Of a stretch of DNA of 18,357 nucleotides, positions 1 to 18,357 are shown piece after piece (positions within the stretch are counted from its first letter, which is position 1; each line of letters begins with the position of its first letter). Under the pieces are notes generated by a model. It did not search any database and was not told the DNA's origin. It worked only from the letters and a program-made list of their open reading frames with translations. The stretch comes from a virus. Lineage: Duplodnaviria; Heunggongvirae; Uroviricota; Caudoviricetes. The stretch is from positions 1 to 18,357 of the IMG/VR virus record IMGVR_UViG_2597489893_000006; one strand, given 5' to 3'. Both the position numbers and the translations under genes were made by a program.

Positions 1-21
1 GGTTTTTTACATCATTGGCCC

Positions 22-459
22 TCAAACCCCTCTTACTTCAGCCGGTGCTGCATGCTGGTGGTGCCATCTACAAAGGGGCAATTGCTTTTTGTGACAACCC
101 GGCGCGGTACGACCGGAGATATGGTGCAGAGACACCTCTTCAGATATTACTCCATGCATGTAGCAGGCAATGCAGGGGAGAGTGCCAAGAGCATTGGCGA
201 TGGTCCGTTCCTCCGCCGTCGGTGTTCGCCCCTTCAAGCCACGAGATTTTATTTTTACCGCACTTTTCCGCGTTTTGCTGGCTGGTGGGCGCTCTTTCTG
301 TTTAGCGATACGGCGGTCGATAGAATCCCGCATTTTCTGATATTGCGATTCTCGCCAGGCGGGGTCAGCCAACTTTTCCCGTTGCCGATCGATCGCTCGT
401 TCTCTGGCTGCCTTCTGCCACTCGCGGCGCTGTTCAAGTTTTTGTTCGATTGTTTTCAT
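22..459 (-). CDS. ref: Ref-like HNH endonuclease (P1 recombination enhancement function); start codon uncertain
   Basis: Translation from ATG at 459 gives 145 aa: a highly charged Lys/Arg/Glu-rich N-terminal region followed by a Cys/His cluster (CIAC...H...LHH...GCH...CRWHH) typical of HNH nucleases. Position and orientation downstream of cre match P1 organisation. The in-frame upstream extension to 564 begins only with TTG and contains a hairpin plus T8. Confidence 0.6.
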   Translation of the reverse strand: MKTIEQKLEQRREWQKAARERAIDRQREKLADPAWRESQYQKMRDSIDRRIAKQKERPPASKTRKSAVKIKSRGLKGRTPTAEERTIANALGTLPCIACYMHGVISEEVSLHHISGRTAPGCHKKQLPLCRWHHQHAAPAEVRGV

Positions 460-464
460 ATGGC

Positions 465-490
465 AAAAAAAAGGCGGCCTAATGGCCGCC
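465..490 (-). terminator. Intrinsic terminator-like hairpin with T8 tract, ending 5 nt upstream of the ref ATG
   Basis: On the minus strand: GGCGGCC-ATTA-GGCCGCC (7-bp GC stem) followed directly by TTTTTTTT, then GCCAT, then ATG. Confidence 0.5.
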
Positions 491-550
491 AATGATGTCA
501 AGGAGTGAAGTAATGGCAACGTCTTCGTAGTTGACAAAAACTGCGGCTCA

Positions 551-574
551 ATTATAGCAATCAATTAGAGCAAT
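551..574 (-). promoter_or_regulatory. C1-operator-like 17-mer overlapping a perfect -10 TATAAT reading toward ref
   Basis: Positions 558-574 match the reverse complement of the C1 operator consensus ATTGCTCTAATAAATTT at 14/17. Minus-strand TATAAT lies at 551-556 immediately downstream. Confidence 0.45.
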
Positions 575-635
575 TAAAGTTATTTGTTTATCGCGAATCA
601 CATTTTTTCACTTCAGTACCTGTGTACTATACTCC

Positions 636-706
636 TTCTTGATTGATTGAATGCGGAATACAAACCCGCTTTTTTGTGCAGCCTGGCTCCTTGCCAGGCT
701 TTTTTT
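636..706 (+). ncRNA. Candidate small RNA unit (promoter-like -35 TTTTCA / -10 TATACT at 605-633, tandem intrinsic terminators at 652-675 and 680-706)
   Basis: Plus-strand TTTTCA, 17-nt spacer, TATACT. Downstream hairpin AGCCTGGC-TCCTT-GCCAGGCT followed by T7. A weaker GCGG..CCGC hairpin plus T6 sits just upstream. The unit is convergent with the 3' end of the minus-strand ORF 705-1016. Confidence 0.25.
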
Positions 707-1016
707 ATTTCAGCATGGAAGCTGTTAACGCTTTGGACCTTGCTGAACTGATTGAAAGGGCTTTGTCAACGTGCCCCAAAAATTCGCCAAACTCGGCCAT
801 CACTTTGGCAAAACCGCGCCGTGCTTCTTTCTCGGTGGCATTCATCACGAAATGTTCAGCACTACGCATACTTTTGACAGGGAACGCAACGGATATTGAG
901 TCAATATCAGGCATTCTATCGCTCAGCTTTACAGTGACAATGACGGCTGGCGACTGAATATTAGTGCTTACAGACAGCACTACATATTTTCCGTCGATGT
1001 TGAAATCCTTTCTCAC
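705..1016 (-). CDS. Hypothetical protein, 103 aa, immediately downstream of cre (position of P1 cra)
   Basis: Minus-strand ORF co-oriented with cre and ref; GGTGA Shine-Dalgarno-like sequence 2 nt upstream of the ATG. The overlapping plus-strand ORF 643-957 starts with TTG and contains the terminator, so the minus-strand frame is preferred. Confidence 0.45.
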   Translation of the reverse strand: MRKDFNIDGKYVVLSVSTNIQSPAVIVTVKLSDRMPDIDSISVAFPVKSMRSAEHFVMNATEKEARRGFAKVMAEFGEFLGHVDKALSISSARSKALTASMLK

Positions 1017-1066: not shown

Positions 1067-2098
1067 CTAATAGCCATCTTCCAGCAGGCGCACCATTGCC
1101 CCTGTTTCACTATCCAGGTTACGGATATAGTTCATGACAATATTTACGTTGGTCCAGCCACCAGCTTGCATGATCTCCGGTATTGAAACTCCGGCGCGGG
1201 CCATATCTCGCGCGGCTCCGACACGGGCACTGTGTCCAGACCAGGCCAGGTACCTCTGGCCAGAGTCATCCTTAGCCCCGAAAATCAATCGGTGAGTTGC
1301 TTCAAAAATCCCTTCCAGGGCGCGAGTTGATAGCTGGCTGGTGGCAGATGGCGCGGCAACACCATTTTTTCTGACACGGCAAAACAAGTAGTTATTCGGA
1401 TCATCAGCCACACCAGAGACAGAAATCCATCGCTCAACCAGTTTAGTTACCCCCAGACTAAGTGCCTTCTCTACACCAGCGGTGCTAACCAGCGTTTTCG
1501 TTCTGCCAATATGGATTAACATTCTCCCACCGTCAGTACGTGAGATATCTTTAACTCTGATCCTAGAAATTTCGGCTATACGTAACAGGGTGTTATAAGC
1601 AATCCCCAGAAATGCCAGATTACGTATATCCTGGCAGCGATCGCTATTTTCCATGAGTGAACGAACCTGGTCGAAATCAGTGCGTTCGAACGCCAGCGCC
1701 TGTTTTGCACGCTCACCGGCATCAACGTTTTCTTTTCGGATCCGTCGCATGACGAGTGAAACAGCATTGCTGTCACTTGGTCGTTGCAGCCCGGACCGAC
1801 GATGAAGCATATTTAGCTGGCCCAAATGTTGCTGGATAGTTTTCACTGCCAGACCGCGCGCCTGAAGATATAGAAGATAATCGCGAACATCTTCAGGTTC
1901 TGCGGGAAACCATTTCCGGTTATTCAACTTGCACCATGCCGCCCATGACCGGCAAACGGACAGAAGCATTTTCCAGGTATGCTCAGAAAACGCCTGGCGA
2001 TCCCTGAACATATCCATCAGGTTCTTGCGAACCTCATCACTCGTTGCATCGACCGGCAATGCAGGCAAATTTTGGTGTACGGTCAGTAAATTGGACAT
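1067..2098 (-). CDS. cre: Cre tyrosine site-specific recombinase
   Basis: 343-aa translation MSNLLTVHQNLPALPVDATSDEVRKNLMDMFRDRQAFSEH... through ...GWTNVNIVMNYIRNLDSETGAMVRLLEDGY is near-identical to P1 Cre as I recall it, including the catalytic Tyr in the MNYIR motif. Canonical loxP lies 435 bp upstream. Confidence 0.97.
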   Translation of the reverse strand: MSNLLTVHQNLPALPVDATSDEVRKNLMDMFRDRQAFSEHTWKMLLSVCRSWAAWCKLNNRKWFPAEPEDVRDYLLYLQARGLAVKTIQQHLGQLNMLHRRSGLQRPSDSNAVSLVMRRIRKENVDAGERAKQALAFERTDFDQVRSLMENSDRCQDIRNLAFLGIAYNTLLRIAEISRIRVKDISRTDGGRMLIHIGRTKTLVSTAGVEKALSLGVTKLVERWISVSGVADDPNNYLFCRVRKNGVAAPSATSQLSTRALEGIFEATHRLIFGAKDDSGQRYLAWSGHSARVGAARDMARAGVSIPEIMQAGGWTNVNIVMNYIRNLDSETGAMVRLLEDGY

Positions 2099-8688: not shown

Positions 8689-9069
8689 CTACTCCGCAGA
8701 ACCATACAATCTACGTAACGTGTCGGCGACAGAAGATACAGATATCTCGCCAGTCGCAGCGCCTACAGTAAGGTCTGCCAGTTCAGGTGAATCAAATACC
8801 TGCACCCCGTTACGGCGTAGAAATAGCAGCGCGCTGTTTAGCGCGGTACGCTTATTGGCATCATTGAATATATGCCCTCTCGCTGTAGCCACCAGGTAGG
8901 TGGCGGAGACTTCGAAAAGGTCGGTGATCTCTTCGTAGGCAACTCTGGCCTGAACTCTCCCGATAATGGCCTCTGCCCTACCCGGATCTGACATTCCCGG
9001 CAGGCCGCCGTAGCGGCTTATATTCGCATCATGAAGCGCAATAAGTTCTTCCGGTGATATATGCCTCAT
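8689..9069 (-). CDS. doc: Doc toxin (Fic-family kinase)
   Basis: 126-aa translation with the Fic motif HIFNDANKR; start overlaps the phd stop (TAATG). Confidence 0.95.
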
Positions 9070-9290
9070 TATCGGTTAACCAGTTCCTTGTTGGTGGAGT
9101 CCAGGGTGTCAAACAGGGATGCAAATTCAGCATCCAGCGCCGCTTTTTTGTAGGCTTCGAAAGTAGCCTTGCTGACAATTACTGCTGGCTCACGACCTCT
9201 GCGGGTGATTTCAACCTCTTCCCCGGCTTCAACATTGTTGAGCACTTCAGAAAGGTTGCCGCGCGCGGTACGGAAGTTAATGGATTGCAT
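9069..9290 (-). CDS. phd: Phd antitoxin
   Basis: 73 aa from ATG at 9290 ([49 protein letters not shown]...), recognisable as P1 Phd. The ORF track's longer form starts at an upstream GTG. Confidence 0.95.
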
Positions 9291-9293
9291 AAA

Positions 9294-9330
9294 CACCTCG
9301 TGTACTCGTTATGTGTACACAATTATAAAC
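9294..9330 (-). promoter_or_regulatory. phd-doc promoter/operator: perfect TATAAT, palindrome TGTGTACACA and half-site GAGTACAC, then GAGGTG Shine-Dalgarno
   Basis: Minus strand reads TTTATAATTGTGTACACATAACGAGTACACGAGGTGTTTATG. Phd is known to autoregulate through palindromic operator sites in this promoter. Confidence 0.6.
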
Positions 9331-9466
9331 TTCACAGGCATAAAGCACCAGCACTTTGCGGCTTAACAAACCTCTAGGCAGGTCATTCGTAGCCTAATGT
9401 CCGAACTGCTAAAGCATCCAAGTTGCTGTAGAATCACCGCCAATTACATAAGCCTGAAATAAGTGG

Positions 9467-10501
9467 ATGAAAATGACAAGTATTCAACAACGTGCAGAGC
9501 TTCATCGTCAAATCTGGCAAATTGCTAACGATGTCAGGGGTTCGGTCGATGGATGGGATTTTAAGCAATACGTTCTGGGCGCACTTTTCTACCGTTTTAT
9601 CAGCGAAAATTTTTCCAGTTATATTGAAGCCGGTGATGACAGTATCTGTTATGCGAAACTGGATGACAGCGTAATTACTGATGACATTAAAGACGATGCC
9701 ATCAAAACTAAAGGCTACTTCATCTACCCCAGTCAGCTTTTCTGCAACGTAGCTGCGAAAGCAAATACCAATGACAGACTGAACGCAGATTTAAACAGCA
9801 TCTTCGTTGCTATCGAAAGTTCTGCTTACGGCTACCCTTCAGAAGCAGACATCAAAGGTTTGTTTGCTGATTTCGATACCACCAGTAACCGCCTGGGTAA
9901 CACCGTTAAAGATAAAAATGCCCGCCTGGCTGCGGTTCTGAAAGGGGTTGAAGGGTTAAAACTTGGTGACTTCAACGAACATCAGATTGACCTGTTCGGT
10001 GATGCCTATGAGTTCCTGATTTCTAACTATGCGGCAAATGCCGGTAAGTCAGGCGGTGAGTTCTTTACACCGCAGCACGTCTCCAAGCTGATTGCACAAC
10101 TGGCTATGCACGGGCAGACCAACGTTAACAAAATCTACGACCCGGCAGCGGGTTCCGGCTCACTGTTGTTGCAGGCTAAAAAGCAGTTTGATAACCATAT
10201 CATCGAAGAAGGCTTTTTTGGTCAGGAAATCAACCATACAACCTATAACCTGGCACGTATGAACATGTTTTTGCACAACATCAACTACGACAAGTTTGAT
10301 ATCAAGCTGGGTAATACACTGACTGAGCCACACTTCAGAGATGAAAAACCGTTTGATGCCATCGTTTCTAACCCGCCGTATTCGGTGAAATGGATTGGCA
10401 GCGATGACCCGACGCTGATTAACGATGAACGTTTTGCCCCGGCTGGCGTCCTGGCCCCCAAATCCAAAGCTGACTTTGCGTTTGTACTACATGCGCTGAA
10501 C
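9467..10501 (+). pseudogene. hsdM: hsdM (Type IC methyltransferase), 5' fragment of 345 codons, truncated by IS903
   Basis: Translation carries the AdoMet motif [10 protein letters not shown] and the N6-adenine motif NPPY. The reading frame runs into the IS903 inverted repeat and stops after 4 IS-encoded codons (GFVE-stop). Confidence 0.9.
10493..10501. repeat. IS903 target-site duplication, left copy (GCGCTGAAC)
   Basis: Identical 9-mer found at 11559-11567 directly flanking the other inverted repeat. Confidence 0.9.
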
Positions 10502-11558
10502 GGCTTTGTTGAATAAATCAGATTTCGGGTAAGTCTCCCCCGTAGCGGGTTGTGTTTTCAGGCAATACGCACGCTTTCAGGCATACCTGCTTTCGTCATT
10601 TTGTTCAGCGCTCGTACCAGGGCCATAGCCTCTGCAACCTGACCATCGTAGTCACGCAGTGTCAGTGAACCCCCGAACAGCTGTTTTACCCGGTACATCG
10701 CCGTTTCCGCTATCGAGCGACGGTTGTAATCTGTTGTCCATTTCCACCGCGCATTACTCCCGGTCATTCGCTGATTAGCCACTGCACGGTTACGGTCTGC
10801 ATATTCACCGGGCCAGTAACCCGCACCTTTTCGGGGTGGGATAAGCGCGCTGATTTTCTTACGCCGCAGTTCATCGTGACATAGCCGGGTATCGTAAGCG
10901 CCATCGGCGGCGGCTGACCTGATTTTCCGGTGGGTTTGCCGGATTAACCCGGGGAAGGCCTCTGAGTCCGTAACGTTGTTCAGCGACAGGTCAGCGCAGA
11001 TGATTTCATGTGTTTTACTGTCAACGGCGAGATGCAGCTTACGCCAGATACGGCGGCGTTCCTGGCCATGCTTTTTGACTTTCCACTCGCCTTCACCGAA
11101 GACCTTCAGCCCGGTGGAATCAATTACCAGGTGTGCGATTTCACCCCGGGTGGGCGTTTTGAAACTGACATTAACCGACTTTGCCCGCCTGCTGACACAG
11201 CTGTAATCCGGGCAGCGTAGCGGAACGTTCATCAGAGAAAAAATGGAATCAATAAAGCCCTGCGCAGCGCGCAGGGTCAGCCTGAATACGCGTTTAATGA
11301 CCAGCACAGTCGTGATGGCAAGGTCAGAATAGCGCTGAGGTCTGCCTCGTGAAGAAGGTGTTGCTGACTCATACCAGGCCTGAATAGCTTCATCATCCAG
11401 CCAGAAAGTTATGGAGCCACGGTTGATGAGGGCTTTATTGTAGGTGGGCCAGTTGGTGATTTTGAACTTTTGCTTTGCCACGGAACGGTCTGCGTTGTCG
11501 GGAAGATACGTGATCTGATCCTTCAACTCAGCAAAAGTTCGATTTATTCAACAAAGCC
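10502..11558 (-). mobile_element. IS903 (IS5 family, IS903 group), complete 1057-bp copy
   Basis: Perfect 18-bp terminal inverted repeats GGCTTTGTTGAATAAATC (10502-10519) and GATTTATTCAACAAAGCC (11541-11558); length 1057 bp; 9-bp direct duplication on both sides; transposase ORF inside. Confidence 0.95.
10558..11481 (-). CDS. IS903 transposase (DDE), 307 aa from a GTG start
   Basis: Translation ...AKQKFKITNWPTYNKALINRGSITFWLDDEAIQAWYE... matches IS903/IS102 transposase as I recall it. The ORF track's 322-aa form begins at an upstream TTG. Confidence 0.88.
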   Translation of the reverse strand: MAKQKFKITNWPTYNKALINRGSITFWLDDEAIQAWYESATPSSRGRPQRYSDLAITTVLVIKRVFRLTLRAAQGFIDSIFSLMNVPLRCPDYSCVSRRAKSVNVSFKTPTRGEIAHLVIDSTGLKVFGEGEWKVKKHGQERRRIWRKLHLAVDSKTHEIICADLSLNNVTDSEAFPGLIRQTHRKIRSAAADGAYDTRLCHDELRRKKISALIPPRKGAGYWPGEYADRNRAVANQRMTGSNARWKWTTDYNRRSIAETAMYRVKQLFGGSLTLRDYDGQVAEAMALVRALNKMTKAGMPESVRIA

Positions 11559-11567
11559 GCGCTGAAC
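11559..11567. repeat. IS903 target-site duplication, right copy (GCGCTGAAC)
   Basis: Identical to 10493-10501. Confidence 0.9.
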
Positions 11568-12095
11568 TATCTTTCGGCCAAAGGTCGTGCTGCGATTGTC
11601 TGCTTCCCGGGTATTTTTTACCGTGGCGGCGCGGAGCAGAAAATCCGTCAGTATCTGGTCGATAATAACTATGTCGAAACCGTGATTTCACTGGCACCGA
11701 ACCTGTTCTTTGGCACCACTATTGCTGTAAACATTCTGGTGCTGTCTAAACATAAAACGGATACCAAAGTTCAGTTTATTGATGCCAGCGAACTGTTCAA
11801 AAAAGAAACCAACAACAATATCCTGACCGATGCCCATATCGAACAGATTATGCAGGTATTTGCCAGCAAGGAAGATGTTGCTCATCTGGCGAAATCTGTT
11901 GCGTTTGAGACTGTTGTCGCGAATGACTATAACCTGTCGGTGAGCAGCTATGTGGAAGCGAAAGATAACCGCGAAATTATCGATATCGGTGAGCTGAATG
12001 CAGAGCTGAAAACCACGGTCAGCAAAATCGACCAGTTGCGTAAAGATATTGATGCAATTGTGGCTGAAATTGAAGGCTGCGAGGTGCAGAAATGA
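11559..12095 (+). pseudogene. hsdM: hsdM 3' fragment (C-terminal 175 codons plus the duplicated ALN codons)
   Basis: Frame continues from the duplicated GCG CTG AAC into [49 protein letters not shown]... Removing the IS and one duplication copy restores a 520-codon ORF (the 1066-bp insertion is a +1 frame shift, which matches the observed frames). Confidence 0.9.
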
Positions 12096-13297
12096 GCGAG
12101 ATGAGTTATCTGGAAAAATTGCTGGATGGGGTTGAGGTTGAGTGGAAGACACTTGGGCAAACTTGCAAAATTGAAACAGGAAAGCTTAATGCGAATGCGG
12201 CTGTTGATGATGGAGAGTATATGTTCTTCACGACAGCCAAAGAGACAAGCAAAATTGATAAATTCCGCTGGGATACAGAGGCATTGCTGATTGCAGGCAA
12301 TGCGAATGTTGGTGAGGTGAAGCATTACATCGGCAAGTTTGAGGCTTATCAGCGCACCTATGTTCTGACAAATTTCGACGAAAATGTAAGTGTTAGATTT
12401 TTGTATTTTGTGCTTAGCCATAGCCTGAAGAAATATCTCGAGGAAAGAACAAATAGCGCGGCAATGACATATATCGTGCTATCAACCTTAGAGAATTTCC
12501 CTATCCCCATCCCCTGCCCGGATAATCCGGAAAAATCCCTTGCCATCCAGTCTGAAATCGTTCGGATTCTGGATAAATTTACTGCACTTACCGCTGAGCT
12601 TACCGCTGAGCTTAACATGCGTAAAAAACAGTACAACTACTATCGCGACCAGTTGTTGAGTTTTAAAGATGGTGAGGTTGAGTGGAAGACTTTGGGGGAA
12701 ATTGGAGATTTTACATATGGATATGCAGCCAAAGCCATGGATTCAGGAGATGCCCGTTTCGTGAGAATTACTGACATAAATAAAGACGGGAAGCTATCGA
12801 AAGAAAACCCAATGTACGTTGAATTAAATGAGGAAAATGAGAAATATACCTTAGACAAAAATGATTTACTCATGGCAAGAACTGGGGCAACCTTTGGTAA
12901 AACAATGATTTTTGAAGAAGATTATCCAGCAGTATACGCTGGTTTTTTAATAAAGTTGAACCTAAATAAAACGATTATTAATGCCAAATATTACTGGCAC
13001 TTTGCACAAAGTGATTTTTTTTGGGAACAGGCTAATAAATTAGTATCTGGTGGTGGGCAACCACAGTTTAATGCTAATGCACTGAAACAAGTCAGAGTAC
13101 CTATTCCATACCCATCTCACCCTCAAAAATCTTTAGACGAACAGGGGCGTATTGTGGATATTCTGGATAAGTTTGATGCAATCGCAGCTTCCATCACCGA
13201 AGGTCTTCCGCGTGAAATCGAGTTGCGCCAGAAACAATACGAATACTACCGTGATTTACTGTTCAGTTTCCCGAAACCTGAAACTGCCAGTAATTAA
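12092..13297 (+). CDS. hsdS: HsdS, Type IC specificity subunit
   Basis: 401 aa; ATG overlaps the hsdM stop (ATGA). Conserved N-terminal, central and C-terminal regions with internal duplication (VEWKTLG twice; ILDKF twice) and a central TAELTAEL repeat; two variable target-recognition domains. Confidence 0.9.
12587..12610 (+). repeat. Two tandem copies of the 12-bp repeat CTTACCGCTGAG (encoding TAEL-TAEL) in the hsdS central conserved region
   Basis: Directly visible tandem repeat. In the EcoR124I/EcoR124II family the copy number (2 versus 3) sets the spacer length of the recognition sequence. Confidence 0.85.
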
Positions 13298-13418
13298 TTG
13301 ATCATTGCTACCGATCGGACCACCTTAACACCCGGTCAGTATATAGACTATTTTTTACGCGCCGGAAGTCACCATTACCCCCCTTCCGGCCCTTGCCAGA
13401 CGGCACAAAGGATGCGCT

Positions 13419-16400
13419 ATGACTCATCAGACACACACCATTGCTGAATCCAATAACTTTATCGTTCTTGATAAGTACATCAAAGCTGAGCCAACAGGCG
13501 ACAGCTACCAGAGCGAATCGGACCTGGAACGTGAACTGATTCAGGACCTGCAAAATCAGGGTTATGAATTTATTTCCGTAAAATCACAGTCGGCAATGCT
13601 GTCCAATGTTCGGGAACAGCTTCAGAGCCTCAATGGTGTGATGTTTAATGACAGCGAGTGGCGGCGCTTCACGGAGCAGTATCTGGACAACCCCAGCGAT
13701 GGTATTCTGGATAAAACCCGTAAAATCCATATCGACTATATCTGCGACTTTATTTTTGATGACGGGCGACTTGAGAACATCTATTTGATAGATAAAAAGA
13801 ATCTCATGCGCAATAAGGTGCAGATTATCCAGCAGTTTGAACAGACGGGTTCTCATGCTAACCGTTATGACGTCACGATCCTGGTTAATGGTTTACCGCT
13901 GGTGCAAATCGAACTAAAAAAACGCGGGGTGGCGATTCGTGAGGCTTTCAACCAGATACATCGTTACAGTAAAGAGAGTTTTAACAGCGAAAATTCCCTG
14001 TTTAAGTATCTGCAACTGTTTGTCATTTCTAACGGCACCGATACCCGTTATTTTGCCAACACGACAAAGCGCGATAAAAACAGTTTTGACTTCACCATGA
14101 ATTGGGCGAAATCAGACAACACGCTGATTAAAGACCTCAAAGACTTTACCGCTACCTTTTTCCAGAAACATACTCTGCTGAATGTTCTGGTGAACTACAG
14201 CGTTTTTGACAGTAGTCAGACGCTACTGGTGATGCGACCGTACCAGATTGCCGCCACCGAGCGCATTCTGTGGAAAATTAAGAGTTCCTTTACAGCGAAG
14301 AACTGGTCAAAACCGGAAAGCGGTGGGTATATCTGGCACACTACCGGTTCTGGTAAAACCCTCACCAGCTTTAAAGCCGCGCGTCTGGCAACAGAGCTGG
14401 ACTTTATTGATAAAGTCTTCTTTGTGGTCGACAGGAAAGACCTCGATTACCAGACCATGAAGGAATATCAGCGTTTTTCGCCAGACAGCGTCAACGGCTC
14501 GGAAAATACCGCAGGCCTTAAACGAAATCTGGATAAGGACGATAACAAAATTATCGTCACTACTATTCAGAAACTCAATAACCTGATGAAAGCAGAAAGC
14601 GACCTGCCTGTATATAATCAGCAAGTGGTGTTTATATTTGATGAATGCCACCGCAGCCAGTTTGGAGAAGCGCAGAAAAACCTGAAGAAGAAATTCAAAC
14701 GCTATTATCAGTTTGGTTTTACCGGCACACCTATTTTCCCGGAAAACGCCTTAGGCTCAGAAACGACCGCCAGCGTATTTGGTCGTGAATTGCATTCGTA
14801 TGTAATTACCGATGCGATTCGTGATGAAAAAGTGCTCAAATTCAAGGTGGACTACAACGATGTGCGGCCACAGTTTAAGTCTTTAGAGACAGAAACTGAC
14901 GAGAAAAAACTAAGTGCGGCTGAAAATCAGCAGGCGTTTCTTCATCCCATGCGTATACAGGAAATTACGCAATATATTCTGAATAACTTCCGCCAGAAGA
15001 CGCACCGTACTTTCCCTGGCGCAAAAGGTTTTAATGCTATGTTGGCAGTGAGCAGCGTGGATGCTGCAAAAGCCTATTACGCGGCGTTTAAACGGTTACA
15101 AGAGGAAGCCGCTAATAAATCTGCAACTTATAAACCGCTGCGTGTTGCGACAATCTTCTCCTTTGCCGCTAATGAAGAACAAAATGCCATTGGTGAAATT
15201 TCCGATGAAACTTTTGATACCAGCGCAATGGACAGCAGTGCTAAAGAGTTTCTTGACGCTGCAATTCGTGAGTATAACAGCTATTTTAAAACTAACTTCA
15301 GCACCGACGGTAACGGTTTTCAGAACTACTATCGCGATTTAGCCCAACGGGTTAAAAATCAGGATATCGATCTGTTAATTGTCGTTGGGATGTTTTTAAC
15401 CGGCTTCGACGCTCCAACATTGAACACGCTATTCGTCGATAAAAACTTGCGTTTTCACGGCCTGATGCAGGCATTTTCCCGCACCAACCGCATTTATAAC
15501 GCCACTAAAACCTTCGGTAACATTGTCACTTTTCGGGATCTGGAACGCTCAACCATTGATGCCATAACGCTGTTTGGTGATAAAAATACCAAAAATGTGG
15601 TGTTAGAAAAGAGTTATGCAGAGTATATGGAAGGTTTTACTGATGCTGCCACCGGTGAAGCCAAACGCGGCTTTATGGCAGTAGTTTCAGAACTGGAACA
15701 ACGGTTCCCTGACCCTGCCAGTATTGAAAGTGAAAAAGAGAAGAAAGACTTCGTTAAACTGTTTGGCGAATACCTGCGTGCCGAGAACATCCTGCAAAAC
15801 TATGATGAATTTGCCACGCTAAAAGCCCTGCAACAAATCGATCTTAGCGATCCTGTTGCGGTAGAAAAATTCAAAGCAGAACATTATGTGGATGATGAAA
15901 AGTTCGCTGAATTGCAAACAATTCGTCTCCCTGCTGATCGCAAGATTCAGGATTATCGTTCTGCCTATAACGATATTCGCGACTGGCAGCGCCGTGAGAA
16001 AGAAGCTGAGAAAAAAGAGAAATCAACCACTGACTGGGATGACGTGGTTTTTGAGGTCGATTTGCTGAAGTCTCAGGAAATAAACCTGGATTATATCCTT
16101 GGACTGATTTTCGAACACAACAGACAAAATAAAGGCAAGGGCGAAATGATCGAAGAGGTCAAACGCTTAATTCGTTCAAGCCTGGGGAACCGGGCGAAAG
16201 AGGGCCTGGTGGTCGATTTTATTCAGCAAACGAACCTGGATGATTTACCAGACAAAGCCAGTATCATTGAGGCATTCTTTACGTTTGCTCAACGCGAACA
16301 GCAACGTGAAGCAGAAGCATTGATAAAAGAAGAAAATCTCAATGAAGATGCAGCAAAACGCTATATTCGCACGTCTTTAAAACGCGAATACGCCACCGAA

Positions 16401-16535
16401 AATGGCACAGAATTAAACGAAACATTACCAAAACTTAGTCCGTTGAATCCGCAATATAAAACGAAAAAACAGGCAGTTTTCCAGAAAATCGTCTCGTTTA
16501 TTGAGAAGTTTAAAGGCGTAGGCGGAAAAATATAG
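13419..16535 (+). CDS. hsdR: HsdR, Type IC restriction endonuclease/translocase subunit
   Basis: 1038 aa with an N-terminal PD-(D/E)xK-like nuclease motif (D...IELKK), Walker A TGSGKT and a DECH box ([10 protein letters not shown]); length equals EcoR124I HsdR. Confidence 0.93.
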
Positions 16536-16550
16536 CCCAATTCGTGTTTT

Positions 16551-16580
16551 TCTTGCGGGTTCTTAATTAAACCCGCAAGA
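16551..16580. repeat. Perfect 10-bp inverted repeat hairpin 16 nt after the hsdR stop, without a 3' U-tract
   Basis: TCTTGCGGGT (16551-16560) and ACCCGCAAGA (16571-16580) with a 10-nt loop. Confidence 0.4.
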
Positions 16581-16614
16581 GCTCGTGGGGTTCCAAATGG
16601 CTAATATACTCCCC

Positions 16615-16701
16615 TTACCCATGCGCGACGATGCCGTCAAAAGTGATAGAGAACAGCCAGAAATAGATCGCGGCCATAATGATTTTGAATGCCGTGTTCA
16701 T
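16615..16701 (-). CDS. Candidate small hydrophobic peptide, 28 aa (MNTAFKIIMAAIYFWLFSITFDGIVAHG)
   Basis: ATG preceded by AGGAG with an 8-nt spacer; one predicted transmembrane-like segment. Lies antisense between the hsdR stop and the plus-strand terminator, downstream of a C1-operator-like site. Confidence 0.3.
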   Translation of the reverse strand: MNTAFKIIMAAIYFWLFSITFDGIVAHG

Positions 16702-16727
16702 ATTTTCAGCTCCTGTGATTGATTGGA

Positions 16728-16761
16728 AACATGCCGCGCCTTGCGGCATGTTTTTATTTTT
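16728..16761 (+). terminator. Rho-independent terminator (plus-strand orientation)
   Basis: AACATGCCGC-GCCTT-GCGGCATGTT (10-bp stem) followed by TTTTTATTTTT. Confidence 0.7.
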
Positions 16762-16783
16762 ACTTTCTCTGTTTTAAAAATCA

Positions 16784-16800
16784 AGATTTATTAGAACAAT
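16784..16800 (-). promoter_or_regulatory. C1-operator-like 17-mer abutting the stop codon of the HAD-like gene
   Basis: agatttattagaacaat matches the reverse complement of the consensus at 15/17. It shares the extended context AAAAATCAAGA with the operator at 2594-2610. Confidence 0.5.
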
Positions 16801-17306
16801 TATTGTTGATGAAGAAGCGCATTTTCATACTCCCTGACCATTAATGTAAGTACGCCATGACTCCTGAACACACGCGCCACTTCAATCTTATCTTCCAGCG
16901 CGAACGCAATTTTACTTAGACCAATTTTCTTCAGGAGATCAATCTTTGCTGGACCGTCATTTCTGTCATCGGTGGCAGGACGCATAGATAGCAAAGGCTC
17001 AGCCCCGTTTGTTACGTACTTCCGCAGCCAGGCTCGTGTTTTATCCCTTGCGATCTCACAGCGCCCGGTTACAAACCAGACCGTGTAAACGTTAAATAAC
17101 TGGCGCACCATATCAATAACTGGAGTGATGGGAGCATCAGTGTCACAGGCAAGGTTAAACTCGTTCCAGTGCTCTGTTAATGCACCTTTGCCAGGTGGTG
17201 GAAGTAAATGCAGCCTGTCTTCCGTTGCCTCTGATATCGTCCCATCAATATCTACTATGACGATGTACGGACGTTCCTGGTGTGCGTGTTTATTGAAAAT
17301 ACTCAA
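16800..17306 (-). CDS. HAD-superfamily phosphatase-like protein (DxDGT motif), 168 aa
   Basis: N-terminal IVIVDIDGTISE matches HAD motif I (as in polynucleotide kinase 3'-phosphatase domains and other HAD enzymes). Start is TTG preceded by GAGGAGGG. Confidence 0.6.
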   Translation of the reverse strand: MSIFNKHAHQERPYIVIVDIDGTISEATEDRLHLLPPPGKGALTEHWNEFNLACDTDAPITPVIDMVRQLFNVYTVWFVTGRCEIARDKTRAWLRKYVTNGAEPLLSMRPATDDRNDGPAKIDLLKKIGLSKIAFALEDKIEVARVFRSHGVLTLMVREYENALLHQQ

Positions 17307-17325
17307 ATGCCCTCCTCATTGGACG

Positions 17326-17358
17326 AAAAAAATGCTGGTGGGAGCACTCCACCAGCAT
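17326..17358 (-). terminator. Rho-independent terminator (minus strand) after the coiled-coil protein gene
   Basis: Minus strand reads ATGCTGGTGG-AGTGCTC-CCACCAGCAT followed by TTTTTTT. Confidence 0.65.
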
Positions 17359-17378
17359 TAAAAGTGACACTGTAACTA

Positions 17379-18356
17379 TCAGCGAACGTAAATAGTGCCG
17401 CCGTTCTCTTTTTCCCATGCATCGCTACGTGCATAGCAAACATCGAGAAGTCTTCTTGCCGCAGTTTCCTCTAAACCCAATTCGACAACCAACTGCTCAT
17501 GACGGCGGGTAACCACATCAAACAGGGTATGCAGCCCTTTAGTTGCCAGATCATCAATGAATTCCGGTTCGAACGGCAGCTCTGCATCTGCCAACATAAC
17601 CTCTTGCGCCCACTCAACTCGACGGACCAATTCCGGGCGGCGGCTTTCCATCTCTTTACAGATCAATTCATGGAAGAACTCTACCCAACCTTCCGGCTGA
17701 AACTCGCGGAAAATTGCCAACGGCTGGAAGTTTGGCATCAACCATTCGTTGATTCGGATATCAATGGCATAGCCCATGTCGCAGCAGAACTGATAAGCAA
17801 AGTCCAGCTTAGAAACGATATAAGGACGCTCGTTATTGAACTCTTTAGGCGATGAGATCCCATAAGCCAGGAGGCGCGGGAAGAAGGAGATTTGCCCTAA
17901 CGTCGGATGAAGTTTGCTTGCAGGGAAACGGCGCTCAGTAATGCCATACATTTCCTTCTTGAGCGTCGCAAATTTGGCATTCTCATTAACCAGCGCGGTA
18001 ACCTCTGCTTTTTTATTAGCAAATGCCACGCGCGCCTCGCTTGCATCTTTAATAGTTTTTTTGAGCTGTTGGTTAAGGTCGGCGACCTGCTTACGCAGTT
18101 CCTGTCGCTCGCTTTTAGCTTTGTTATAGCGTTTCTCAAGGTTAAAAGGATCAAGTTTCATGATCTCTTTATATTGAGATTTTAGCGTTGAAATCTGTGA
18201 GTTCCGCAGTTCAACCATCGCGGTCATTTCATTGAGTTTTGTTTCCAGCTCAATGCTTATACGTTCGGCATTATCAGCACGCTGGTTGGAGTCATGCGTC
18301 GCATCGTCGATCGCGTCCTGTTGCTGGTGACCTGCCCCCACGATTAGATACAACAC
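17379..18356 (-). CDS. Hypothetical protein with predicted coiled-coil region and C-terminal globular domain; 5' end beyond the window
   Basis: Open frame with no stop up to the window edge. About 100 residues of heptad-like Lys/Glu/Leu-rich sequence (ELETKLNEMTAMVELRNSQISTLKSQYKE...KQVADLNQQLKK...) are followed by a mixed hydrophobic/aromatic domain; no recognised catalytic motif. Confidence 0.55.
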   Translation of the reverse strand: MLYLIVGAGHQQQDAIDDATHDSNQRADNAERISIELETKLNEMTAMVELRNSQISTLKSQYKEIMKLDPFNLEKRYNKAKSERQELRKQVADLNQQLKKTIKDASEARVAFANKKAEVTALVNENAKFATLKKEMYGITERRFPASKLHPTLGQISFFPRLLAYGISSPKEFNNERPYIVSKLDFAYQFCCDMGYAIDIRINEWLMPNFQPLAIFREFQPEGWVEFFHELICKEMESRRPELVRRVEWAQEVMLADAELPFEPEFIDDLATKGLHTLFDVVTRRHEQLVVELGLEETAARRLLDVCYARSDAWEKENGGTIYVR

Positions 18357-18357
18357 T

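Follow-up and report, generated by a model that had tools for sequence, protein, structure and literature searches.

The gene ref of P1-like phages raises a question about its own beginning: does the terminator-like hairpin in front of its first ATG belong to the mRNA leader, as a terminator or attenuator, or does it lie inside the coding sequence of a longer Ref? The original prediction had left both alternatives standing. We addressed the question in an 18,357-nt stretch of DNA (18.4 kb; the window), which belongs to a P1-like phage-plasmid (Punavirus) and is oriented opposite to the standard P1 map.

The ref leader and the start of Ref

On the minus strand of the window, the order of elements is TATAAT (556..551), the 5' arm GGCGGCC (490..484), the loop ATTA (483..480), the 3' arm GGCCGCC (479..473), the T8 tract TTTTTTTT (472..465), GCCAT, and ATG (459..457). 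This strand has the predicted hairpin, T8 tract, and 5-nt spacer, and it lacks a ribosome-binding site, again as predicted. The features of the region are as follows.

2098..1067, minus strand: cre
1016..705, minus strand: c8, with its stop at 705
551..579, minus strand: promoter P2ref, with a perfect -10 box TATAAT (556..551) and a weak -35 box CTTTAA (579..574), from the P1 annotation and alignment
574..558, minus strand: C1 repressor operator Oref, ATTGCTCTAATTGATTG, identical to P1 AF234172 feature 1962..1978 and containing an in-frame TTG (564..562)
491..544, minus strand: ref leader 5' of the hairpin, with a 5' stem-loop GUUUUUGU/ACGAAGAC in the minimum-energy fold and moderate conservation
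492..519, minus strand: predicted second promoter P1ref, TTGCCA, 16 nt including TG, CATCAT, from a consensus scan; also labeled as predicted in the P1 annotation
473..490, minus strand: probable terminator/attenuator hairpin GGCGGCC-AUUA-GGCCGCC, from the fold, the strict scan, arm conservation, and compensatory changes
465..472, minus strand: U8 tract, the probable terminator tail, at -13..-6 relative to the AUG, the usual position of a ribosome-binding site
457..459, minus strand: ref start codon ATG, after the 5-nt spacer GCCAU (464..460), from the P1 CDS start, the PDB 3PLW chain start, and homologue alignments
22..459, minus strand: truncated ref, running leftwards from 459, with codons 1 to 143 (459..31) and then Gly-Val-stop from a transposon end (30..22)
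1..30, minus strand: Tn3-family terminal inverted repeat GGGGTTTGAGGGCCAATGATGTAAAAAACC..., 30 of 38 bp; P1 homology stops at position 30

From the C1 operator to the ref ATG, the window aligns base for base with phage P1 (AF234172/NC_005856), so that the regulatory region has the same sequence, promoter, operator, and start codon in both. P1 AF234172 annotates Oref, P2ref, the predicted P1ref, and a 186-aa ref CDS from the same ATG, while the hairpin itself has no annotated feature in the P1 GenBank records. A 41-nt hairpin query matched P1, P7, RCS47, and SJ46 with 100% identity, in one copy per genome. Transcription from P2ref would start near 545..543. The window departs from P1 in two respects, a difference of a few bases in the -35 region upstream of the operator and the end of ref after codon 143 at the Tn3-family end. 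In the -35 region, the window has CTTTAA and P1 has CTATCA, with a 1-nt length difference just upstream (575..580, minus strand); the operator and the -10 box are the same.

The N terminus of Ref had been considered ambiguous, and this can be refuted. P1, with an identical leader, has its 186-aa Ref annotated from the same ATG, and the ATG-initiated ORF of the window (145 aa) aligns with the chain of PDB 3PLW, 186 residues long, from the first residue of both through residue 143. The 3PLW chain sequence begins MKTIEQK, and the Ref homologues of Klebsiella, Salmonella, and others all align from their first residues MKT, MKL, or MIL. Because P1 Ref starts at the same ATG and the 3PLW chain starts MKTIEQK, the 145-aa ORF is short at its C terminus and not at its N terminus. 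The length of 186 aa given for P1 Ref in the original prediction was thus correct, but the gap lies at the other end of the protein.

The hairpin would be part of the coding sequence if a longer Ref started at the TTG at 564..562 or at another TTG in the same frame, a reading that is scarcely credible. The frame is indeed open over 35 codons from 564 to the ATG, and the resulting ORF of 180 aa comes close to 186 aa; however, chance alone would leave a frame open over this many codons about 19% of the time, the 41 missing aa are explained at the C terminus of Ref, and the resemblance of the two lengths is a coincidence. As predicted, the TTG lies within the C1 operator and upstream of the TATAAT of P2ref, and it is therefore not on the P2ref mRNA. 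It is not, as had been claimed, the sole in-frame upstream start: the sequence and the ORF translation show four further in-frame TTG codons (537..535, 519..517, 501..499, and 492..490), and no ribosome-binding site or Shine-Dalgarno sequence was found at any of these four. The frame is moreover closed in relatives. The loop of E. albertii-type P1 relatives reads TAAA, which places an in-frame TAA within the hairpin, and in Salmonella relatives a stop codon immediately precedes the ref start. The P1 annotation, the 3PLW chain, the stops in relatives, and the position of the TTG together dispose of the longer Ref.

The C-terminal loss is due to a transposon end. Ref ends at R143, followed by Gly-Val-stop, and residues 144 to 186 are removed. 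The minus strand from position 30 is GGGGTTTGAGGGCCAATGATGTAAAAAACC, which in the identical plasmid NZ_CP061756.1 continues ...ACGCTAAG, completing a 38-bp inverted repeat. After the repeat, this plasmid has the C-terminal half of a Tn3-type transposase (a tnpA remnant; PF01526, E = 1e-76), cut by IS26. The Pfam RecA_dep_nuc match (PF16786) of the window Ref covers only profile positions 1 to 64 of 103. The Ref-family RecA-dependent HNH nuclease domain is incomplete, with the downstream catalytic His153 missing; this residue is replaced, along with a second histidine, in the Ref H134/153A variant listed in PMC4713147. Judged from its sequence, ref in the present element is a dead gene, a transposon-truncated pseudogene, because the Tn3-family end has removed residues 144 to 186. 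Annotation pipelines should call neither the 145-aa nor the 180-aa ORF an intact Ref.

Beyond the tnpA remnant and IS26, NZ_CP061756.1 carries a heat-resistance locus (yfdX1/2, hdeD-GI, trx-GI, kefB-GI, psiE-GI, and htpX). Given the repeat, tnpA/IS26, and heat-resistance locus of this identical plasmid, the window appears to come from a P1-like phage-plasmid with a heat-resistance island inserted in ref. In locus L003, the repeat region continues at 8994..9031 and leftwards. In P7, Tn3 has inserted independently, close to the 3' end of ref. At the other end of the window, P1 and most sequenced relatives cover only 56 to 68% of its length; the best-matching phage record, vB_EcoM-673R5, reaches 89% coverage, and its matching part lists genes for type I restriction-modification (HsdR2 and an S subunit). 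A variable defence region thus seems to occupy the right half (about 9200..18357).

The hairpin as a probable intrinsic terminator and its conservation

The stem consists of seven G-C pairs closed by a tetraloop, an independently stable GC-rich stem-loop. With its tail, it folds at -16.2 kcal/mol (z = -4.5), and none of 200 shuffled sequences was as stable. The U8 tract follows the stem on the ref-sense strand only; on the opposite strand, A8 precedes the stem and no T run follows it. No Shine-Dalgarno-like purine run was found between the T tract and the ref ATG.

A loose terminator pattern is common, with 4 sites observed versus 2.9 expected in 2.4 kb. We used a strict definition as well, requiring a perfect stem of 7 bp or more, of which 6 or more are GC pairs, and 6 or more T among the 8 bases that follow. 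By this definition, both strands of the whole window hold two sites, versus 0.01 expected from 200 dinucleotide shuffles. One is the ref hairpin; the other lies on the plus strand of the same intergenic region, at 680..707. No Rfam family matched above threshold; the subthreshold matches, such as suhB/mmgR with 22.9 bits against a gathering score of 41, were rejected as driven by terminator shape. A repeated or mobile element was also rejected, because the hairpin occurs only once per P1-type genome. We consider it likely that the 5' leader of P1 ref carries, in this hairpin, an intrinsic (Rho-independent) terminator that acts as a transcription attenuator.

The stem is strongly conserved in relatives. 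All 79 P1-like loci from IMG/VR keep it, and variation is confined to the loop (ATTA, ATCA, or TAAA), the length of the U tract (7 to 10), the spacer (GCCAT, GACCAT, or ACCTT), and a change from G-C to G-U at the base of the stem. The arms of the 61 unique P1-like sequences show no changes other than wobbles, with minor-allele fractions of 0.000 (5' arm) and 0.012 (3' arm); the loop (0.061), the remaining leader (0.031), and the c8 coding sequence (0.088) vary more. The U tract of 7 to 10 in P1-like loci with ref is 6 long in ref-less E. albertii plasmids and 5 to 8 long in a Klebsiella/Salmonella clade.

This clade comprises six loci with P1-like Ref homologues of 65 to 68% identity. A C1-type operator followed by TATAAT was found in five of the six, the exception being L105 (Klebsiella aerogenes), where the operator is degenerate (four mismatches) and TATAAT is missing. 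In every one of the six, about 60 nt of leader lead to the hairpin GACGGUC-UUCG-GACCGUC-U5-8 (with the loop UACG in L105), which is followed by a spacing of 11 to 14 nt and then ATG or GTG. Compared to P1, the stem has two compensatory pairs (G-C to A-U and C-G to U-A), and L108 has a U-G intermediate. A Pantoea element with 60% identity has the operator, the hairpin GCCGCC-UCCG-GGCGGC-U7, 95 nt, and ATG; this hairpin was located by searching for a hairpin and is not homologous to that of P1. In a hairpin-centered alignment, which represents only about three lineages, 98.9% of the cells were paired and both sides had changed in three of the seven pairs; when the alignments were slid by 1 to 3 columns as a control, 16 to 70% were paired.

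The inverted repeat is perfect (7+7) at the DNA level too, and symmetric half-site changes in a binding site for a dimeric protein would likewise appear compensatory. That the palindrome serves as such a DNA site and not as an RNA structure is nevertheless very improbable. The G-U variants (GGCCGCT and GGCCGTT, and the U-G in L108) preserve pairing only in RNA of the ref-sense strand and break the symmetry of the DNA, the T tract after the palindrome is always on the sense strand only, and in Pantoea the hairpin-plus-U architecture is kept with a wholly different stem sequence.

We also looked at more distant Ref homologues, from Pantoea, Enterobacter, Citrobacter, Vibrio, and prophages of Klebsiella, Raoultella, and Buttiauxella. 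Most of them have other operators or are located in operons, and no leader terminator was found there. It follows that the hairpin is a feature of the C1-controlled ref module and not of ref genes generally.

Proposed attenuation of ref and routes of read-through

The hairpin (490..473) is placed between the P2ref -10 box (556..551) and the ATG at 459, and neither the loose nor the strict scan found a minus-strand terminator between the c8 stop (705) and the hairpin. In the mechanism that we propose, transcripts from the C1-repressed P2ref, together with any read-through from cre-c8, would meet the hairpin of seven G-C pairs followed by U8. The terminator would end 5 nt before the ref AUG, and most RNA polymerases would be expected to stop there, releasing an RNA of about 80 nt. 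Only the read-through fraction would carry ref, and thus expression of this toxic RecA-dependent nuclease would be held low even with C1 inactivated. The read-through mRNA would have no Shine-Dalgarno sequence; the U8 tract stands in its position and may recruit ribosomes.

According to PMC4713147, the ref transcript rises 73-fold on induction after C1 inactivation. Read-through or a bypass of the hairpin therefore exists, even though the start codon has no Shine-Dalgarno sequence and stands only 5 nt behind what looks like a strong terminator. Possible routes are constitutive leaky termination, a protein antiterminator, perhaps of phage or host origin, or bypass through P1ref.

We searched the leaders for RNA antiterminators and found no conserved one: in the P1 clade, pairing between the 5' arm and the leader sequence before it was no more favorable than in shuffled sequences (p = 0.14 to 0.84). 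Folded before the 3' arm is transcribed, the nascent 5' arm of P1 can pair upstream in a helix GUUGCCA/UGGCGGC, which we rejected as an antiterminator since its energy gain does not exceed that of shuffles (p = 0.14) and close variants do not retain it. Three of four leaders from the Klebsiella/Salmonella clade (L106 to L108) have a conserved upstream ACUGUCA that can pair with UGACGGU in the 5' arm, with marginal significance against shuffles (p = 0.02 to 0.06); this helix is absent in L105. It is a possible antiterminator helix in L106 to L108, with no clear counterpart in P1. No trp-type leader peptide was found; the leader offers only TTG codons with no Shine-Dalgarno sequence, all in the ref frame, which a stop breaks in relatives. 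Antitermination by ribosomes translating the in-frame leader was likewise rejected, given the missing ribosome-binding site and the stops that close the frame in relatives.

In known attenuators such as those of trp and pyrBI, and in the expression platforms of riboswitches, an intrinsic terminator between the promoter and the first codon limits transcription, as proposed here for ref. Unlike in trp-type attenuators and riboswitches, no leader peptide, conserved alternative helix, or Rfam match above threshold was found in the ref leader.

The leader of E. coli rnd, the gene of RNase D, reportedly has a stem-loop followed by U8 just before the translation start. The ref leader resembles it, with a terminator-like hairpin and exactly eight U before the initiation region; the ref U8 tract is at -13..-6, immediately upstream of the initiation region as in rnd. 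The rnd gene keeps a Shine-Dalgarno sequence and a UUG start. Unlike rnd, P1 ref has no Shine-Dalgarno sequence in its leader and starts with AUG. According to PMC3575828, U8 promotes both ribosome binding and translation. A dual role of the ref U8 tract as terminator tail and translation enhancer is plausible.

The resemblance to rnd bears on another explanation, in which functional ref mRNA comes mainly from the predicted P1ref. Transcripts from P1ref would begin within the 5' arm of the stem, so the full hairpin would never form, and the remaining short stem with U8 would serve as a 5' stabilizer and ribosome-recruiting element, as in the rnd leader. The P1ref sequence TTGCCA-16-CATCAT, with an extended -10 TG, scores 9/12 and is annotated as predicted in P1, and the TG and -10 positions A2 and T6 are kept in P1-clade variants. 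A translation-enhancing U8 is also documented: in PMC3575828, which cites Zhang and Deutscher (1992, PNAS 89:2605), U8 directly upstream of the ribosome-binding site raised reporter expression about 3-fold. However, P1ref is only a predicted promoter, it is absent from the leaders of the Klebsiella/Salmonella clade, which still keep the hairpin and the U tract, and the C1 dependence of the 73-fold induction argues that the C1-controlled P2ref supplies most of the mRNA. On balance, we find P1ref an unlikely main source of ref mRNA.

Other possible roles and the known attenuator

The hairpin is also kept where ref is missing. In 57 records of ref-less P1-like plasmids, mostly from E. albertii and E. 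coli, the C1 operator, the leader, and the hairpin are retained, and ref is replaced by a convergent pair of an antirepressor gene (KilAC/Ant) and an icd-like gene (ant-icd), which ends 2 nt from the hairpin. The recombination breakpoint of the ref-less plasmids lies within the T tract (L004 1501..1800 and L005 1501..1815). Since these 57 plasmids keep the hairpin, it may equally terminate the cre-c8 unit, and the layout of the ref-less lineage also fits a general role as a terminator or insulator.

The hairpin could accordingly be mainly the end of the cre-c8 unit and an insulator, the short C1-controlled P2ref transcript being a by-product or a separate RNA and not a means of dedicated ref regulation. 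Besides the 57 plasmids, the stretch free of minus-strand terminators from the c8 stop to the hairpin speaks for this. On the other hand, in the Klebsiella/Salmonella clade and in Pantoea, the gene upstream is a different one and the hairpin is still found between the C1 operator/promoter and ref, which means that it travels with the promoter-ref module; the two roles, terminator of cre-c8 and attenuator of ref, are also mutually compatible. We hold the cre-c8 reading as a tentative possibility only.

The spacer between c8 and ref has features on the plus strand as well. A promoter-like sequence TTTTCA-17-TATACT is located at 605..633, followed by two terminator-like hairpins (653..707), GCGG..CCGC-U6 at 653..676 and AGCCUGGC-UCCUU-GCCAGGCU-U7 at 680..707. 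They delimit a candidate plus-strand RNA of about 66 nt (about 640..707), divergent from ref, with a fold of -21.8 kcal/mol (z = -3.3) and an end at the only other strong terminator of the window. The region 605..707 is more conserved than the adjacent c8 coding sequence. It is unannotated in P1 and has no Rfam match above threshold.

The 3' modules of Hfq-dependent small RNAs consist of a GC-rich hairpin and at least seven U, and the terminated P2ref RNA of about 80 nt would, speculatively, end in the same way. P2ref, leader, and hairpin might then together make up an independent gene, repressed by C1, whose RNA product of about 80 nt would have an Hfq-type 3' end and itself act during induction; the module would make a divergent pair with the plus-strand RNA of about 66 nt. 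We think this quite improbable; if true, it would explain why the module is retained in the 57 plasmids lacking ref.

Attenuation of ref, the reading that we prefer, has a precedent in the literature. The title of Windle, Laufer, and Hays (1988, J Bacteriol 170:4881; PMC211533) names an "attenuator" for P1 ref, and on the basis of this title, and with no other terminator between the promoter and ref, we identify that attenuator with the present hairpin. The first alternative of the original prediction, that ref is translated from a leader carrying a terminator or attenuator, is thus supported and agrees with the 1988 title. The ref leader was already known, because the sequence is that of P1 itself, and the hairpin was known in so far as it matches the attenuator of that title; what is new here is only the comparison among relatives, with the covariation that it shows, and the finding of how ref was truncated. 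Our literature search returned no relevant P1 transcriptomics or transcription-start data. In a CRISPRi study (PMC10695390), ref is listed as nonessential for P1 plaque formation.

The result has little importance beyond annotation, where it settles the start codon of Ref. For the P1-like phages, the comparative data give modest new support to the attenuator proposal of 1988: the terminator in the ref leader has been kept by selection in at least two P1-like lineages, with compensatory changes in its stem, and a third lineage has an analogous, nonhomologous hairpin.
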